Origin: a plasmid | Sequence record: CP051992.1 | DNA: 35,665 nt | Direction: 5' to 3' (one strand) | Shown: positions 3,656-33,762 of the stretch, piece after piece | Layout: every line of letters starts with the position of its first letter | Position numbering within the stretch: position 1 is the first letter of the stretch | Translations under genes and position numbers: made by a program | Notes under the pieces: generated by a model | Databases searched by the model: none | What the model was told of the DNA's origin: nothing | What the model saw: the letters and a program-made list of their open reading frames with translations, nothing else

Positions 3656-3690
3656 TAAAAACCAATGATAAAAAGTCATTGGTTTTTATT
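3656..3690. terminator. bidirectional intrinsic terminator between convergent genes
   Basis: aaaa-ACCAATGA-taaaaag-TCATTGGT-ttttt, perfect 8-9 bp stem flanked by A-run and T-run. Confidence 0.6.
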
Positions 3691-4105
3691 ATTCCACACT
3701 AACAATATAGTTTAAGGATATTTTTATTTTAGTTCCTCTATGTTTACTAGTAACTACCATTACACGTTCTAACAAGTCAACTTTGTTTATATAGCATTCC
3801 ATTGAATTTATATAGCCGTTATCCCAATAACTTAATTCTGTAAGAATATTGTTCATACTGTTGTAGTAAACTGTTTCATTAAGTATCTGTAATTGATCGT
3901 CAGACAACAAAGGCATATCAACTTTGTTTTGTTCTTCTATATACTCATCTAATAACTTATACTGGTCAGATACTGTCTTAAATGGAGACCATTTGACTTT
4001 ATCTCTTCCCTTAGGAATATTGTTATCAAGTAATCCTTTAGGAATTTTTCTATAATCAGTTTCATATTTATATGGCTCGGGCAGTTCTGGATTAATCACA
4101 TACAT
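3689..4105 (-). CDS. hypothetical protein (~138 aa)
   Basis: ORF track 3689..4135. The internal ATG (MYVINPEL..) has SD gatgaggtg; the first ATG has none. The only minus-strand gene in the accessory region. Confidence 0.5.
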   Translation of the reverse strand: MYVINPELPEPYKYETDYRKIPKGLLDNNIPKGRDKVKWSPFKTVSDQYKLLDEYIEEQNKVDMPLLSDDQLQILNETVYYNSMNNILTELSYWDNGYINSMECYINKVDLLERVMVVTSKHRGTKIKISLNYIVSVE

Positions 4106-4270
4106 TTTTAACACCTCATCACCATTATAGAACATACGTTCTTATAAGTGAATAGAAGTTTTGTTATATTATAAGTGGTAATAAAACAAAGAATAAGTAT
4201 TATTGATATTTATAGTTATTTCTCATGATAGATTTACTATAATTCTCATTAAATTTAAGAGGTGTATATA

Positions 4271-5963: not shown

Positions 5964-6519
5964 ATGGCTAAAATTGGTTATGCACGTGTATCAACGAAAG
6001 ATCAAAGTCTTGACGGCCAAATTGATACACTTAAAGAATTTGGGTGTGAACGTATCTTTAGTGAAAAAATAAGTGGCCGGAAAGTCAAACGTACAGAGCT
6101 TGATAAGTGTTTAGATTATTTACGAGAGGGAGACACATTAGTTATCTATAAGCTTGACCGGTTAGGTAGAACGACAAAGCAATTGATTGAATTATCACAA
6201 TGGCTCGATGATAACGGGATTGATTTACAAATTATTGATATGAACGTTTCAACGAAAGACGCAATGGGTAAAATGTTTTTCACGATGATGAGTGCCTTTG
6301 CTGAACTTGAAGCTAACTTATTAAGTGAGCGTACAAAAAAAAGGGTTAGCTGCTGCGAGGGCAAGAGGTAGATTAGGAGGTAGACCGTCTTTACCAGACC
6401 ATAAGAAACGAGAAATTAAGTTCTTATACGATGAACAAATGATGACTGGAGAAGAGATTGCTAAGAAAACAGGAGTAAGTCGCTCTACTGTTTATCGTAT
6501 AGTTAAGGAAAGAAAGTGA
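5964..6519 (+). pseudogene. serine recombinase (resolvase/invertase family, Bin/Sin-like) split by a +1 frameshift in an A8 tract
   Basis: N-terminal MAKIGYARVSTKDQSLDGQ...LDRLGR is the catalytic resolvase domain. The second ORF (6325..6519) continues ..GLAAARARGRLGGRP.. with a C-terminal HTH (GVSRSTVYRIV). The two frames join if the run at 6335-6342 is A7 rather than A8. Confidence 0.7.
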
Positions 6520-6539
6520 TATAATCACTTTCTTTTTTA
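6508..6539 (+). terminator. intrinsic terminator after the recombinase gene
   Basis: gaaagtgat-ata-atcactttc followed by tttttt. Confidence 0.55.
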
Positions 6540-6548
6540 TTTGTAAAA

Positions 6549-6768
6549 TTTTAGAATTTATTTTTTGTGTTGATACGCTCACACGCACAATCAGAGATTG
6601 TGCTTTTAACAAGCCTACGTGATATTGCAAGGGGCAAAAAACTTTTTATTTGTGGCCATATGGCCAGTCTAAAAACTTTTATTGCTTGTACCCTTGCAAT
6701 CTCCAGCGTAACGGCTTGTTTCAGTGGCTATACAACACGAAAAAAATAAATAATTTCTAAAAGAAAAA
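6549..6768 (+). repeat. 220-bp structured direct repeat, copy 1
   Basis: 97% identical to 7280-7499 (7 mismatches). Contains hairpin gcacaatc-aga-gattgtgc+tttt, nested inverted repeats caagcc..ttgcaaggg / cccttgcaa..ggcttg, and palindrome tggccatatggcca. Ends directly at the SD of the 121-aa ORF. Confidence 0.8.
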
Positions 6769-6781
6769 AGGAGTTAAAAAA

Positions 6782-7147
6782 ATGGATAAAAACAAACTTG
6801 AAATTTATTTGAGAATATGCGAAAACATCAAGGAATATAAAAATTTAGAATTTGAATGTTATAACGAAGATGAAGAAGTTTTTGATTCAAACTTACAATG
6901 TCCTTTGGCATATACTACAAAAGGAGATAATGAGGAATTTGAAATTCAGGTTACATTAGATTTAAATAATAACCAAATTATTAAAGAAATATCGCATGTG
7001 TATATAAATTATAAAGAATATGAGTGTTTTAAAGATTGGGAAGAAATAGCATCTAAAACTTTAAACTTTGACGATTTAATTATGACTGATATGGACGTAG
7101 ATGATTTACTAGAAGAAATTCCTAATAAAAAAGGAATAAAATATTAA
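6782..7147 (+). CDS. strongly acidic hypothetical protein (121 aa)
   Basis: SD aaggag. About 34 D/E against 15 K/R. Flanked by the two 220-bp repeats. Confidence 0.6.
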   Translation: MDKNKLEIYLRICENIKEYKNLEFECYNEDEEVFDSNLQCPLAYTTKGDNEEFEIQVTLDLNNNQIIKEISHVYINYKEYECFKDWEEIASKTLNFDDLIMTDMDVDDLLEEIPNKKGIKY

Positions 7148-7181
7148 ATAAACAATAAGAACAAAGCAAAAATCAAAATGA

Positions 7182-7218
7182 GTGAATGTGATGTATTAGC
7201 TATGCACATCACATTCAC
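7182..7218 (+). other. perfect 13-bp stem hairpin (gtgaatgtgatgt ... acatcacattcac)
   Basis: Read directly; not followed by a T-run. Confidence 0.4.
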
Positions 7219-7242
7219 ATTTAAAAACCAAATTCAAAAATG

Positions 7243-7279
7243 GAGGGAAAGTGAGGTATCACTTTCCCTTTATTTCATT
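7243..7279 (+). terminator. intrinsic terminator (gggaaagtga / tcactttccc + T-rich)
   Basis: 10-bp stem followed by tttatttcatttttt. Confidence 0.5.
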
Positions 7280-7499
7280 TTTTAGAATTTATTTTTTGTG
7301 TTGATACGCTCACACGCACAATCAAAGATTGTGCTTTTAACAAGCCTACGTGATATTGCAAGGGGCAAAAAACTTTTTATTTGTGGCCATACGGCCAGTC
7401 TAAAAACTTTTGTTGCTTGTACCCTTGCAACCTCAAACGTAACGGCTTGTTTCAGTGGCTACACAACACGAAAAAAATAAATAATTTCTAAAAGAAAAA
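7280..7499 (+). repeat. 220-bp structured direct repeat, copy 2
   Basis: See copy 1. Ends at SD caaggagga of the 29-aa peptide ORF. Confidence 0.8.
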
Positions 7500-7515
7500 T
7501 CAAGGAGGATTTAAG

Positions 7516-7605
7516 ATGACTTACTTACTAATACTCATAATAATTATTGGTTTTTGTGTCATGTGTTTTCAAATATTACAGTGTATCAAGTCTTTCAAAA
7601 AATAA
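7516..7605 (+). CDS. 29-aa hydrophobic peptide MTYLLILIIIIGFCVMCFQILQCIKSFKK, type I toxin-like
   Basis: Strong SD (caaggagg) 7 nt upstream. Single TM helix with a basic KK C-terminus. Confidence 0.4.
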   Translation: MTYLLILIIIIGFCVMCFQILQCIKSFKK

Positions 7606-7632
7606 TATAAATTTTGAAAGGGGGTGATATTA

Positions 7633-7752
7633 GTGAAAAGAATGCAGAGAAAGGAAGAAGAACAAAAAAATAAGACTGTAAAAGCTAATTTGGTATTACT
7701 GTACCTTAACATAGCTTATACAATCTTACAGATACTTGGCAAAGTATTATAG
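7633..7752 (+). CDS. 39-aa peptide with charged N-terminus and hydrophobic C-terminus (GTG start)
   Basis: SD aaggggg 5-6 nt upstream of GTG. Terminator hairpin follows immediately. Confidence 0.25.
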   Translation: MKRMQRKEEEQKNKTVKANLVLLYLNIAYTILQILGKVL

Positions 7753-7758
7753 TTCTTC

Positions 7759-7790
7759 AAATAGGGGTTCACGTCCCCTATTTCTTTTCT
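7759..7790 (+). terminator. intrinsic terminator (atagggg-ttcacgt-cccctat + T-rich)
   Basis: Read directly. Confidence 0.5.
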
Positions 7791-7814
7791 ACTATTATAA
7801 CATAGGAGGTTTAA

Positions 7815-7892
7815 AATGGAAAATTACAATAAACTTGTGTTTATTTTATTACTATTCCTTACGTGTTTGAATCTATTAAATTTTATATTGTA
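7815..7892 (+). CDS. 25-aa hydrophobic peptide MENYNKLVFILLLFLTCLNLLNFIL
   Basis: SD taggaggt 8 nt upstream of ATG. Confidence 0.3.
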
Positions 7893-7992
7893 GGTTTTAT
7901 AATGATTAAATGCAAACAGTTTCAAAGATTAAAAGAACATTATTTTAATGGTTTAACTGTTCAATTAATATAATAAAGCGCTCTTCGGTAAA

Positions 7993-8006
7993 TTACACAT
8001 GTGTAA
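7993..8006. promoter_or_regulatory. perfect 14-bp palindrome ttacacatgtgtaa at the 3' end of the minus-strand transfer operon
   Basis: Shares gtaaaTTACACA / TGTGTAA half-sites with the array at 6-43. Confidence 0.35.
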
Positions 8007-8018
8007 CTATCCAATCGC

Positions 8019-8624
8019 TTAAATGTTTTTTGTGTACTTACAATTAGGATAGTTAGAACAGCCTAAAAACTGGCCGTTTTTGCCTGTTCTAACTACTAAT
8101 TTATGATTGCATCTTGGACATTTTTCATTATTTGAAAAATCGGGATTTATACTAATAATCCATTTAGATAAGCTTGTTCTATCTTTCATAACGACATCGC
8201 ACGCCTTACCTAACTCGACTGCACTTTTAGTATAAAAACTATTAGTCACAAGCCATGCTTCATCGGCATTGTAAAAACGTTGTGCGGTGTATATTTCTTG
8301 CACAGCTTTAATACCTATCTTACTGTTACTCCGTTTTGCTTGTACAACTATTTTTTTATTCTCTTTTTTTAATATTAAGTCTGCACCATAGTCCCTTGAA
8401 GCTTTCGTTACAATTGGCTTATATTTTAACTTTAAAAACAATGCTTCGAGATAATATTCGAATTCTATGCCTTCCATTTTATCTATATCAATTATATGTG
8501 CTCTTCTATATAATGCTTGAATTTTTTTCTTCTTAATAAATCTATAAATGACGGGCGTTAACTTATATGCGATAACTAACATAAATATTAGTAGTAAAAT
8601 ATTGTAGATGTTTATTTCAGTCAT
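8019..8624 (-). CDS. membrane-anchored Mrr-like (PD-(D/E)xK) restriction-endonuclease-fold protein with C-terminal topoisomerase-type C4 zinc ribbon (201 aa)
   Basis: N-terminal TM (ILLLIFMLVIAY). GADLIL...VVQAKR nuclease-core pattern. C-terminal CPRCNHKLVVRTGKNGQFLGCSNYPNC. Ends 2 bp after the primase-like gene. Confidence 0.6.
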   Translation of the reverse strand: MTEINIYNILLLIFMLVIAYKLTPVIYRFIKKKKIQALYRRAHIIDIDKMEGIEFEYYLEALFLKLKYKPIVTKASRDYGADLILKKENKKIVVQAKRSNSKIGIKAVQEIYTAQRFYNADEAWLVTNSFYTKSAVELGKACDVVMKDRTSLSKWIISINPDFSNNEKCPRCNHKLVVRTGKNGQFLGCSNYPNCKYTKNI

Positions 8625-8626
8625 GT

Positions 8627-9658
8627 TTATATCTCCCTATCATCTTTTTCGTTATGAGTTTGTTCTTTCAATTGCTCTTTTATTTCATTTTTTTGATATA
8701 ACGTTTTTCCGTCAGTTATCGCTTTATCCTTTTTTAATTGTTCGTTCCAATCTTTAGAGTTTAAAGGTAAATCTATTGTAAAGTCATTTTCGTAAGTATT
8801 AACGATGCTGCTTACGAAATTTTTCCCTGCCTCATCGTTATCAACGGCTAAAACTATACTTTCTAGTGGGTATTCTTTTGGTTCTTCTCCTAGTTTCAAA
8901 TTATATTTGCCAACATCTAAAATGTGCTGTTTAAAAGTTTCTAATTTAAGGCCTGACAGTGAGGCTATTCGAGTTTGTTTTAAGTCCCTATGCGAGTCAT
9001 AATAACTGAGGGCATCTATAGGACTTTCCGTTATAACAACATTACGAATACCTATATTTTTATCTTGAATGATATCAATGTGAAATCCACTATGTTGCTT
9101 TGATCCTTCTACAATTTGTTTAAAAGCCTTTCTCCCTGTACCACGTTTATCTACCCCGACAATGTTATTTTCATTATCTAACCATTTAAAACAAACATTG
9201 TTCTGTTTGTCTTGAGCTATAACTCCTGTATTGAACCCCCATCTAACAAGTTTTGGGTCTAAACACCTTTCATTTACTAAGTAATTATAAGCTCTTGTAC
9301 TATCTTTCATTTCAGTTTGTGTATTGTAATTTAAAGTCTTTTTTTCTTTTATAGAAAAATTGTCATTTTTATATTGAGAAAAACCATCTTGCGTTAAAAT
9401 AGACATTGCTTCTTTAAAATCCATGTCTAATACATCTATACAAAAAGATAAACCGCCATGTCCTTTTACGCCTTTAGAGTTCCAATAATAACTTTGTCCT
9501 TTTAGAATCAATGAATCGTGCTCTATGCATCTATCATATTTGCCTTCTTTTTTAAATGTAAGTCCATAAGCTTCTCCTATTTCTCTAATGTCAGTTTTTC
9601 TTGCATGTTCTTTTTCTTCGTTTGTATAGGATTGTTTACTCATATTAAAAACCTCCAA
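8627..9658 (-). CDS. DUF3991/Toprim-domain protein (conjugative primase-like, 343 aa)
   Basis: Toprim motifs VVITESPIDALSY and LAVDNDEAGKNF. Confidence 0.65.
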   Translation of the reverse strand: MEVFNMSKQSYTNEEKEHARKTDIREIGEAYGLTFKKEGKYDRCIEHDSLILKGQSYYWNSKGVKGHGGLSFCIDVLDMDFKEAMSILTQDGFSQYKNDNFSIKEKKTLNYNTQTEMKDSTRAYNYLVNERCLDPKLVRWGFNTGVIAQDKQNNVCFKWLDNENNIVGVDKRGTGRKAFKQIVEGSKQHSGFHIDIIQDKNIGIRNVVITESPIDALSYYDSHRDLKQTRIASLSGLKLETFKQHILDVGKYNLKLGEEPKEYPLESIVLAVDNDEAGKNFVSSIVNTYENDFTIDLPLNSKDWNEQLKKDKAITDGKTLYQKNEIKEQLKEQTHNEKDDREI

Positions 9659-17626: not shown

Positions 17627-17689
17627 AATTCTGTTAACCTCCTAATCAAAAATACTTAAAATCTTTTAAAAATAAAATTTTCGTAAGAG

Positions 17690-17875
17690 CATAAGGGAAA
17701 TATGACCCCATATTTTATGGGTGGCTGGCAAAGCCAGCCATTTCAAGGTTTTTAAAGAATTTAAAGTGACCCCACAATAAACTATAGTGTCACAGTTTTG
17801 TGACACTATATATTGTGTTTGTCACAGTTTTGTGACACAACATGTAGAATTTGTCTTATTTTTGTGACACTTGTT
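17690..17875. other. candidate origin of transfer (oriT): GC hairpin tggctgg-caaag-ccagcca (17722-17740), 11-bp perfect inverted repeat tatagtgtcac/gtgacactata (17783-17810), second inverted repeat (17819-17838) and a third TGTGACAC copy (17862-17869)
   Basis: Read directly. Lies between the T4SS operon end and the RHH-relaxase operon start. Confidence 0.55.
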
Positions 17876-17877
17876 TT

Positions 17878-32575: not shown

Positions 32576-33565
32576 TTAATCATTTTGGCTAAAAATATTC
32601 CAAGAACTATTTTTAAAATTCTTTTTTCGCATGTTTAATGAATGTAATTCTTCAAGTTCCATTTTTATACATTTCATCAAATATCCTTGCATAGTTTCAA
32701 CACTTTCGTTTTTCATATAAACTTTTGCTTTAAAGCGTTTTAAAACATTTACAAGGTCATAATCGATATCTTCTAGCATATAAGTTGTGTTATGTTCAGT
32801 ATTAAACGATTTCTTTGCTTTTAAAATAATTTCTTTTACTACTTTGAGTTCTCTATAAGAAAAATTATTAAGATAGTGTTTTGATTGTTCAGGGAATTCT
32901 TGAAGTTCTGTGAATTTCAAAGCTTCTTCATCAGAATTTAGTGAATCATGATTTGAATGATTTGAATGATTACTAATTTTATTTTTGAACTCTATATCAT
33001 TCAAGTCATTCATATCATTATTGTCAGTATCAATATATTCAGTATTACTTAAATCAGTATCATTAGTGTGCGATTTTCGCATTTCTTGTTGTGCGATTTC
33101 AGCATTTCTAGAAATGCGATTTTCGCATTTCTTGAAATGCGAAAATCGCATTTCAGCGTCATTACTAGGTTCAACACTTGTTTCTTCTTGTTTTTTTAAT
33201 TCATAAACATCTTCTTTAGTAATTGTAGGATTCTTCAAATATAATTTGTTTGGTTTACCTTGACCACATCTGACTTGTTCTAAAAGATCAGCTTTAGATA
33301 ATTCTTTTTTAATTTTTGTTAATTTTCCATCGTGACAATTTAATATAGTTTTAAGATTTTCGTTTGTGAAGATGAAAAATATATCACCATTTTCATCAAA
33401 CCAATTATTTTTAATTGATAATTCTAGTCTATCCTTTAACAATGCATAAGCAATTTTTGCATCATTGCTTAATTGCATATATTTTTCGTTAGTAAAAAAT
33501 ACTTTTGGTAGTTGGTAAAATTTCTCTCTATATTGTTGTTGGATATTAAATCTTTGTTCAGACAT
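32576..33565 (-). CDS. rep: RepA_N-family plasmid replication initiator
   Basis: N-terminus MSEQRFNIQQQYREKFYQLPKVFF...LSNDAKIAYALLKDRLELS...NWFDENGDIFFIFTNE...GQGKPNKLYL is the RepA_N domain. ATG 33563-33565 with SD aaagagg; the ORF track extends to 33682. Confidence 0.8.
   Translation of the reverse strand: MSEQRFNIQQQYREKFYQLPKVFFTNEKYMQLSNDAKIAYALLKDRLELSIKNNWFDENGDIFFIFTNENLKTILNCHDGKLTKIKKELSKADLLEQVRCGQGKPNKLYLKNPTITKEDVYELKKQEETSVEPSNDAEMRFSHFKKCENRISRNAEIAQQEMRKSHTNDTDLSNTEYIDTDNNDMNDLNDIEFKNKISNHSNHSNHDSLNSDEEALKFTELQEFPEQSKHYLNNFSYRELKVVKEIILKAKKSFNTEHNTTYMLEDIDYDLVNVLKRFKAKVYMKNESVETMQGYLMKCIKMELEELHSLNMRKKNFKNSSWNIFSQND
33074..33166. repeat. four ~22-bp iteron-like repeats (tgcgattttcgcatttcttg variants) inside the rep coding sequence; candidate oriV
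   Basis: Read directly; each unit contains the palindrome gcgaaaatcgc. Confidence 0.6.
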
Positions 33566-33649
33566 AATAAAAACCTCTTTCCGAATTTTAGTTTGGTAAG
33601 AGGTAATAAAACGTTTACATTTTTTGTGTTTATTTAATAATCTAGGTGC

Positions 33650-33762
33650 TTGCACTAAAGAGAAAATCATTATATAATACAAGTATCAATTTTATATTAA
33701 ATAAACGTTTGCAGACGTTCTATTACCAGAGAGCAACTAATTCCAGTAGTTGCTCTTTTTTC
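33650..33762 (+). ncRNA. candidate countertranscript (antisense) RNA opposing the rep leader: promoter TTGCAC-17-TATAAT, ~77-nt transcript ending at a hairpin plus T-run
   Basis: ttgcac 33650-33655, tataat 33673-33678, terminator agagcaact..agttgctct+tttttt at 33730-33762. Antisense to the rep 5'UTR. Confidence 0.45.

Follow-up and report, generated by a model that had tools for sequence, protein, structure and literature searches.

A cluster of three very small genes at 7516-7893 of the staphylococcal plasmid record CP051992.1 resembles a type I toxin-antitoxin module, in which two hydrophobic peptides would be controlled by one cis-antisense RNA. The whole stretch of DNA analysed, called the window below, is 35,665 nucleotides (nt) long and corresponds approximately to a complete conjugative plasmid of Staphylococcus aureus belonging to the pWBG749 family. 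We put the probability that the cluster is such a type I-like module, previously undescribed, at about 0.45, a little short of even odds. This reading is favoured because the layout matches the anatomy of type I systems in Firmicutes (bsrG/SR4, txpA/RatA and sprA1/SprA1AS), in which a transmembrane (TM) peptide is encoded by a folded mRNA and a convergent promoter behind the terminator creates a 3' overlap of about 120 nt; the nearest layout is that of yonT/yoyJ/SR6. The core of the cluster, in an order that is fixed in at least five staphylococcal lineages (the window group, the pNY5A group, L027/28, L029 and L030), consists of open reading frame (ORF) 2, a GC hairpin terminator, a minus-strand promoter motif and ORF3. 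The features of the region are:

7516-7605, plus strand: ORF1, 29 amino acids (aa), ATG start, Shine-Dalgarno sequence (SD) AAGGAGG at 7502-7508, peptide MTYLLILIIIIGFCVMCFQILQCIKSFKK
7633-7752, plus strand: ORF2, 39 aa, GTG start, SD GAAAGGGGGTGAT at 7616-7628, peptide (M)KRMQRKEEEQKNKTVKANLVLLYLNIAYTILQILGKVL
7647-7791, plus strand: conserved RNA fold spanning ORF2 codons 5-39 and the terminator (RNAalifold)
7759-7790, plus strand: intrinsic terminator of the ORF1-ORF2 transcript, AAATAGGGG-TTCACGT-CCCCTATTT, then CTTTTCT
7664-7787, minus strand: predicted cis-antisense RNA of about 120 nt, its 5' hairpin the complement of the ORF2 terminator
7794-7822, minus strand: predicted sigma-A-type promoter, -35 TTTCCA (7822-7817), 17-nt spacer, extended -10 TGTTATAAT (7802-7794)
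7816-7893, plus strand: ORF3, 25 aa, ATG start, SD TAGGAGG at 7803-7809, peptide MENYNKLVFILLLFLTCLNLLNFIL

Three small genes and their conservation

A first-pass annotation of this DNA had pointed to three tiny hydrophobic ORFs, each behind a strong SD, and the ORFs and their SDs were located where it had placed them. The SD of ORF2 is close to the consensus complement of the 16S rRNA 3' end. That annotation also credited the ORFs with their own terminators, which is accurate for ORF2, where a hairpin (7759-7783) and a T-rich tail follow directly 3' of the gene; the terminator scan found none for ORF1 and none for ORF3.

Small ORFs are abundant in AT-rich DNA (32 of at least 20 aa overlap the 2.5-kb stretch 6500-9000), and diverged copies were therefore sought as coding evidence. 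They were collected through DNA and protein searches of plasmids, a protein search, a metagenome pattern scan and a hidden Markov model search that covered 1.84 billion cluster representatives. The copies fall into the following groups:

S. aureus IVB6202 (L004), 94% DNA identity to the window: ORF1, ORF2, ORF3
p3020.C01b (L005), 88% DNA identity to the window: ORF2, ORF3
Metagenomic S. aureus-type contig (L019): ORF1, ORF2, ORF3 and an intact DUF4314 gene
S. haemolyticus pNY5A and relatives (L006, L009, L010, L017, L020), 74% for pNY5A: ORF1, ORF2, ORF3 and a DUF4314 gene
Three distant lineages (L027/L028, L029, L030), beyond DNA matching: ORF2-like and ORF3-like genes

Order, frame, SD and length of whichever ORFs are present are kept across plasmids that have diverged by 6-40% in DNA. 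Since the ORFs remain open and collinear in plasmids whose DNA differs by up to about 40%, we conclude, on these comparative grounds, that all three are protein-coding genes. The ratio of non-synonymous to synonymous substitution (dN/dS) is 0.1-0.67 overall and, measured against the window, about 0.5 for ORF1, 0.5-0.6 for ORF2 and 0.14-0.27 for ORF3. Synonymous divergence (pS) of ORF2, 0.34-0.40, lies below that of ORF1 and ORF3 (0.53-0.78), a difference that would fit an added constraint at the nucleotide level. The ORF2 of pNY5A carries a 9-nt insertion that keeps the frame. A base-by-base comparison of seven pWBG749-family copies revealed three coding differences, the conservative replacements V15I in ORF1 and M4I in ORF2 and a silent third-position change in ORF3 codon 18, and the sole indel among them is in the G-run of the ORF2 SD.

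Each lineage has an ORF2 homologue. Its start codon is GTG or TTG without exception, its SD is near-consensus, and its place is always that of a second or third cistron, with other genes in front. ORF1 is conserved as a peptide in L004, L019, L006, L009, L010, L017 and L020, and is missing from p3020.C01b, where an 81-aa gene stands in its place, and from L027-L030; by this distribution it appears to be the least conserved member of the cluster, dispensable and lineage-specific. Scans of genome contigs with an ORF2-alignment profile and with an exact DNA pattern gave no match, a tblastn search of a phage collection with ORF2 returned nothing, and neither did a tblastn search of plasmids with the distant homologue P0005. 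On the S. shinii plasmid p14AME19-3 (L007, 1497-1559), about 52 nt of the ORF2 3' end (window 7700-7751) are present at 90.6% identity, with the N-terminal part of ORF2, the terminator and ORF3 missing; this looks like a remnant of the module. An acidic protein of 65-71 aa (MNY.EI...VVKAIF.YE...), which the window lacks, adjoins the ORF2/ORF3 pair in the three distant lineages, its gene lying upstream of the pair in L029 (3767-3970) and L030 (3713-3928) and downstream of it in L027 (1319-1516).

The ORFs are unannotated in most records. ORF2 is a "hypothetical protein" in a few, and in LC757492 and LC756921 it is deposited as "posD, hypothetical protein" with no function described. The terms "posD" and "tra25", the plasmid names and the peptide strings brought up nothing relevant in the literature searched, and posD is a record label only.

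ORF3 of the window departs from the arrangement in relatives. In related plasmids it is 28-29 aa long, ending ..FILEVL or ..EVIK, and its stop is overlapped by the start of an intact DUF4314 gene of 71-74 aa (the p3020.C01b protein matches DUF4314 at 8.5e-28). A GAG>TAG change at 7891 of the window makes ORF3 three residues shorter and destroys the SD of the DUF4314 gene, of which a remnant is left:

7902-7973, plus strand: DUF4314 gene remnant, 23 codons, MIKCKQFQRLKEHYFNGLTVQLI

A general link between small ORFs and DUF4314 was considered and rejected: no small hydrophobic ORFs precede the more distant DUF4314 genes that were checked (S. epidermidis, Macrococcoides, S. capitis and Enterococcus).

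A conserved promoter motif facing the ORF2 terminator

Immediately after each ORF2 homologue, sometimes overlapping its stop codon, stands a GC hairpin of the form ..TAGGGG-loop-CCCCTA.., and a spacer of about 20 nt, which includes ATTATAAC (replaced by ATATTAAC or ATTTTATC in two lineages), separates this hairpin from the SD of ORF3. The minus strand of the spacer holds the -10 element of a promoter motif that ranks first in the region in a promoter scan, with 10 of 12 matches plus the TG. The extended -10 is TGTTATAAT in the window, p3020, L027 and L029, TGATATAAT in IVB6202, TGTTAATAT in the pNY5A group and TGATAAAAT in L030. Every lineage thus has a -35 of TTTTCA, TTGCAA or TTTCCA, a spacing of 17 nt, and TGnTATAAT, TAAAAT or TAATAT, giving the consensus layout -35, 17 nt, TGnTAWAAT. 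For scale, TGNTATAAT occurs 10 times in the whole window (both strands) against 4.6 expected. The -10 lies in non-coding spacer and is retained where the mean column identity of the flanking DNA falls to 57%.

The first-pass annotation had found no antisense partner obvious; it had overlooked this conserved promoter between the ORF2 terminator and the ORF3 SD, which may supply a cis-antisense RNA. Two other candidate promoters were rejected for want of conservation, a minus-strand promoter-like site inside ORF1 (7572->7543; not conserved in L019) and a plus-strand promoter for ORF3 in the 3' end of ORF2 (7725-7753; not conserved in L004, L006 and L027).

A covarying RNA fold and the predicted antisense RNA

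The fold across ORF2 has three helices. One pairs a purine-rich tract in the 5' coding part of ORF2 with a pyrimidine-rich 3' tail, another is a long internal hairpin (7672-7727) in the part that encodes the TM helix, and the last is the terminator hairpin. RNAalifold identified 6 compensatory pairs from 5 sequences. With 9 sequences from at least five lineages, the 37 pairs of the fold are 91.9% paired, as against 41-55% in slid controls, and include 12 compensatory pairs, as against 3-6; none of 500 shuffles reached the observed values. The terminator hairpin alone accounts for two compensatory pairs and is 100% paired in the 9 sequences. Long-range pairing between the 5' and 3' parts, as known from type I toxin mRNAs, is present, but the predicted pairing covers codons 5-10 and not the SD. 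ORF1 and ORF3 have no comparable fold.

In every lineage (9 sequences) the minus strand has a long hairpin with a U-rich run behind it, and in the window the 3' end of the predicted antisense RNA is a hairpin (7727->7672) followed by U7 (7670->7664). Judged from the position of the promoter, the RNA could start at about 7787, some 7 nt past the -10, and could end at about 7665. The resulting molecule of about 120 nt would, according to its predicted structure, carry a hairpin at each end, with a single-stranded stretch between the two and a U-tract after the 3' one.

Character of the peptides

The best 18-residue Kyte-Doolittle (KD) mean ranges from 1.7 to 3.1 across the three peptides (3.06 for ORF1), and the hydrophobic moment (muH) is 0.09 for ORF1, 0.09-0.18 for ORF1 and ORF3 together, and 0.33 for ORF2. 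With the coding conservation, these values bear out the initial description of the three as genes for small single-TM peptides, and by composition the peptides are of that type and not amphipathic. The sequences of Fst, PepA1, BsrG and TisB are in the same range of hydrophobicity, and those of phenol-soluble modulins (PSMs) and delta-toxin have a muH of 0.48-0.58 and a KD of 0.75-1.3. The alternative raised at first, that these are amphipathic PSM-like peptides, is not supported by the comparison.

ORF1 has an N-terminal TM helix and a basic C-terminus. In ORF2 the first 17 or so residues are rich in K, R and E, and the TM helix is C-terminal. Asn and Gln within the ORF2 helix are kept in most homologues (LNI...Q), and an LTx[LI]N motif is conserved in the middle of the ORF3 helix. 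Because these conserved polar residues sit inside short TM helices, they suggest that the peptides may oligomerise. As peptides of fewer than 60 aa, hydrophobic and with one TM helix, they agree with the general description of a type I toxin.

Searches with Pfam, NCBIfam, PADLOC, PHROGs and Rfam profiles returned no toxin family. Pfam and NCBIfam, Fst/Ldr models included, gave no family for ORF1, ORF2 or ORF3 at E<=1, and PADLOC and PHROGs gave nothing significant for the three peptides. Weak matches in these libraries (Cas13d at E=0.0099, PHROG "membrane protein" families at E>=0.02) were discounted as driven by composition. Rfam reported no family at gathering score in the window, and at E<=5 yielded chance-level matches only (6300-8100). 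In peptides of the Fst/Ldr group the TM helix is N-terminal and contains a conserved proline or glycine, and the C-terminal tail behind it is charged. Proline is absent from ORF1, ORF2, ORF3 and their homologues, and among the three peptides the layout of a TM helix and then a basic tail is seen in ORF1 alone. NCBI annotation assigns a toxin of a related S. capitis plasmid to the Fst family, and therefore recognises real Fst toxins in this setting. Because profile matches and an Rfam antitoxin RNA are both lacking, the peptides are, as far as profiles can tell, not members of Fst or Ldr; the resemblance claimed initially, which concerned the least conserved of the three peptides, is not upheld.

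Comparison with known systems

[quoted passage not shown] Of published layouts this is the nearest to ours, in layout only: two small ORFs lie on one strand with an antisense gene (here a predicted one) between them, the antisense RNA overlaps the 3' end of the first toxin mRNA, and both are on mobile elements of Firmicute hosts. They are unlike in that no sequence similarity was detected, and in that YonT has 58 aa whereas ORF2 has 39-44 aa and a C-terminal TM helix. Unlike SR6, the RNA predicted here would start at about 7787, upstream of the ORF3 SD at 7803-7809, and only its promoter overlaps the start of ORF3.

The par locus (Fst/RNA II) of pAD1 and staphylococcal Fst-like loci resemble the cluster in combining a plasmid-borne hydrophobic peptide with convergent transcription around a terminator. 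They differ in that there is no Fst profile match and no proline in the TM helix here, in that the antisense promoter here lies beyond the terminator whereas the par RNAs share a bidirectional terminator, and in their 5' direct repeats, which were not identified here. Type I systems with 3' overlap, which include bsrG/SR4 and txpA/RatA of B. subtilis and sprA1/SprA1AS and sprG/SprF of S. aureus, are like the cluster in having a convergent antitoxin promoter just downstream of the toxin terminator, an overlap of about 100-120 nt, a structured toxin mRNA and a small TM peptide. Their toxins, unlike ORF2, are monocistronic with a promoter of their own, an N-terminal TM helix and a charged C-terminus, and they are further set apart by the absence of any Pfam, NCBIfam or Rfam match here.

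Proposed mechanism

If the cluster is a type I-like module, it might operate as follows. ORF1 and ORF2 would be transcribed rightwards from behind the 220-nt hairpin that precedes ORF1, and most transcripts would end at 7759-7790. Little ORF2 peptide would be made from them, owing to the compact fold of the mRNA (5' purine tract with 3' pyrimidine tail) and the weak GTG or TTG start. The minus-strand RNA of about 120 nt, from about 7787 to about 7665, would be fully complementary to the ORF2 mRNA over its 3' two-thirds and, by analogy with bsrG/SR4, txpA/RatA and yonT/SR6, could bring about RNase III-dependent decay or a block of translation. As its promoter overlaps the RBS and start codon of ORF3, antisense transcription would also oppose the expression of ORF3 (in relatives, of the DUF4314 gene too) by read-through. 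Were the antisense RNA lost, for example together with the plasmid, ORF2 and possibly ORF3 would enter the membrane by way of their helices with Asn, Gln and Thr and harm the cell, so that retention of the plasmid would be favoured. ORF1 would be a lineage-specific extra membrane peptide without an antisense partner of its own.

Weighing the alternatives

A type I reading with ORF2 as the candidate toxin is reasonable, and several observations weigh against it. The ORF2 family is tiny, with 6 proteins among the cluster representatives searched, and similarity to known type I toxin families or antitoxin RNAs was not detected. No promoter belonging to ORF2 itself was found in any lineage, which is unusual for type I toxins, and its TM helix, C-terminal behind a charged N-terminus, is the reverse of the arrangement in most type I toxins of Firmicutes. 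Because the antisense -35 falls on the start codon of ORF3, next to the SD, its conservation is in part accounted for by the coding and translation signals there. The fold can form on both strands, with G-U pairs on both, and for that reason the covariation leaves undecided which RNA uses it. The simple terminator scan, finally, did not call the predicted antisense terminator, in which there is a large internal loop.

The main rival, which we regard as quite possible if somewhat less probable than the type I reading, is that the peptides are non-toxic small membrane proteins, accessory cargo of the unidirectional array of small genes (for example modulators of membrane processes, or exclusion or establishment factors), and that terminator, fold and promoter only tune expression or insulate the genes. 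In its favour, the ORFs stand in polycistronic modules headed by the same hairpin as many unrelated genes, ORF3 is translationally coupled to the DUF4314 gene in relatives, and the strong SD of ORF1 is exposed and serves an ATG, which one would not expect of a lethal peptide. The want of a toxin-family match in Pfam, NCBIfam and PADLOC suits it as well, as does an ORF2 that is never monocistronic, has a topology atypical of type I toxins and belongs to so small a family. A convergent promoter placed exactly behind the terminator, and a covarying fold within a coding region, nevertheless exceed what a simple operon needs, and the start of ORF2 is always GTG or TTG. Small hydrophobic peptide genes with a cis-antisense RNA on plasmids and prophages have, moreover, repeatedly proved to be type I toxin-antitoxin systems. 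An RNA-only product, with the ORF2 region acting as a structured small RNA or as an attenuator of read-through into ORF3 and DUF4314 and the ORFs left untranslated, would account for the strong covarying fold across ORF2 and its reduced synonymous change; we think it improbable, given that the ORF2 frame survives an in-frame 9-nt insertion and nucleotide divergence of about 25%, that replacements in ORF2 are conservative and its SD is near-consensus in every lineage, and that ORF1 and ORF3 have dN/dS below 1 and no comparable fold.

Three independent toxins of the Fst/Ldr type with their own terminators, perhaps controlled by an RNA from the 220-nt element, would be in general agreement with the size, single TM helix and basic C-terminus of ORF1. 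Membership of that family is largely refuted by the profile and Rfam results (no match at E<=1, no antitoxin match); a terminator is found at ORF2 alone, ORF1 is missing in several lineages, the minus-strand promoter-like site in ORF1 is not conserved in L019, and the 220-nt element is generic, multi-copy and placed 5' of unrelated genes, so that we hold this explanation to be very improbable. With several small peptide genes side by side on a staphylococcal plasmid, one also thinks of secreted agents that damage membranes, namely PSM-like cytolysins or a leaderless multi-peptide bacteriocin. We give these the least credence of all: the peptides are of the TM type (muH 0.09-0.33 and KD 1.7-3.1, against the PSM values above), no transporter or immunity gene was seen beside the cluster in the loci examined, and Pfam and NCBIfam gave no match.

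Plasmid setting

The stretch 7150-8020 has 100% identity with NC_013325, AP018563 and LC784012; against pWBG749 itself the figure is 97.9%. A long minus-strand operon that runs from about 30.6 kb down to 8019 is the counterpart of the smpA-X conjugation cluster known in the pWBG749 family (PMC4652767), and it adjoins a RepA_N replication-initiator gene at 32576-33682. The last gene of the operon, 8019-8624, encodes an Mrr-type nuclease with a zinc ribbon, and the ORF cluster lies just past the operon's end. It forms the downstream end of a run of plus-strand genes, to which a YolD-like gene at 3689-4135 is the sole minus-strand exception. The run includes a serine recombinase (resolvase/invertase) gene, 5964-6519, in which an extra A at 6335, in a poly-A run, relative to pWBG749 and pTDC04C splits the reading frame into ORFs at 5964-6371 and 6325-6519. 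The split recombinase is either a pseudogene of this plasmid or a sequencing error.

The core of the origin of transfer (oriT), CTTATGCTCTT, as given in published work on the pWBG749 family (PMC4652767), is on the minus strand at 17695-17685 (region 17627-17877), with repeats on its 5' side and smpO on its 3' side. Because the core is on the minus strand with the repeats 5' of it, we infer by the usual oriT convention that the minus strand is the one transferred. The genes smpO-smpX would then enter the recipient first and the array of small ORFs next, and the incoming strand would be the template of the array.

The 220-nt hairpin element

Upstream of ORF1 lies a structured element that is present twice in the window:

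7280-7499, plus strand: hairpin element of about 220 nt, copy 2, ending just before the ORF1 SD
6549-6768: hairpin element of about 220 nt, copy 1, a direct repeat of copy 2, 97% identical

The first-pass annotation had noted the element and suggested that it could supply an antisense partner. The structure is real: on either strand the element is one long imperfect hairpin (-79.7 kcal/mol, z -8.5), the minus strand folding slightly better (mean -77.8 kcal/mol, against -73.5 for the plus strand), and 11 pairs covary across 21 copies. The suggested role is not borne out. Copies were found at 164 places in 81 staphylococcal plasmids, with up to 7 in one plasmid (pNY5A, L011), and in the mapped loci (others with the element are L005, L008, L019 and L021-L023) all of them are co-oriented with, and immediately 5' of, unrelated small-gene modules. 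Because it is multi-copy and stands before unrelated modules, the element is generic to the array and not a dedicated antitoxin of these peptides. Copies within a plasmid are more alike than copies in different plasmids, that is, they have been homogenised. A serine recombinase gene is often at the head of the hairpin array. Hairpin-punctuated gene arrays, which are common on staphylococcal plasmids, are not mentioned in the pWBG749 literature searched.

A promoter scan of both strands (at least 10 of 12 matches, extended -10 credited) found none in the hairpin or in the 90 nt upstream of it for 18 of 19 copies. The sole site that passed, TGGACA-18-TATTAT on the minus strand of an S. capitis copy, is at the 3' edge of the scanned stretch, outside the hairpin. 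An extended -10, TGATATAAT, is present on the plus strand at 6517-6525, in the 3' end of the recombinase gene and about 25 nt upstream of copy 1; no other promoter-like signal was found from which the array could be transcribed.

The interval between the two copies, 6769-7279, with one hairpin copy makes up a module, comprising a 121-aa acidic ORF (6782-7147) and a terminator that looks bidirectional (7238-7275). It is absent from IVB6202, in which the recombinase gene is followed by a single hairpin copy and then ORF1, and the CP049438 record has one hairpin copy only. This pattern suggests that modules may be gained or lost by recombination between hairpin copies. A different intergenic repeat of about 600-850 nt is found in 4 copies on an S. 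xylosus-like plasmid contig (L029, 1182-7085); it begins with a terminator, ends with a palindrome (TATACTTTC..GAAAAGTATA) and an SD, and separates gene modules, one of which contains the ORF2/ORF3 homologues.

The element could serve on single-stranded DNA (ssDNA) as a promoter or priming site, in RNA as a leader or processing site, or in recombination as a cassette-type site. Like Frpo/ssi (PMC11541004), it forms a long imperfect hairpin, copies of which precede small genes that run in one direction, with the strand that we take to be transferred serving as template of those genes. It is unlike Frpo/ssi in that -35 and -10 hexamers were not found in the stem, in that the array starts about 9.7 kb from oriT, behind smpO-smpX, and in its Gram-positive host. 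A Frpo-like role as an ssDNA promoter would fit the orientation and is speculative. Leading and accessory regions of plasmids commonly carry toxin-antitoxin genes (PMC11541004). One could accordingly imagine that ORF2, the antisense gene and ORF3 are the first cargo of a Gram-positive counterpart of a leading-region or cassette array whose hairpins act on ssDNA, so that the module would be expressed within minutes of entry into a recipient and would enforce establishment or retention of the plasmid; the hairpins could then be promoters or priming sites on the incoming strand, or attC-like sites for the adjacent serine recombinase. We consider this scenario unlikely.

Implications

A large share of S. 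aureus resistance plasmids is mobilised by plasmids of the pWBG749 family (PMC4652767), and the pWBG749 literature searched does not deal with how their hosts retain them. If the type I reading of the cluster holds, it would describe a new family of a known kind, and would add to the catalogue of toxins a family that is missing from most record annotations or called hypothetical in them. Two toxin genes with a single antisense RNA between them would also be on record for a second time. As an RNA-controlled two-peptide toxin system, the cluster would be a candidate determinant of the maintenance or establishment of pWBG749-family plasmids.

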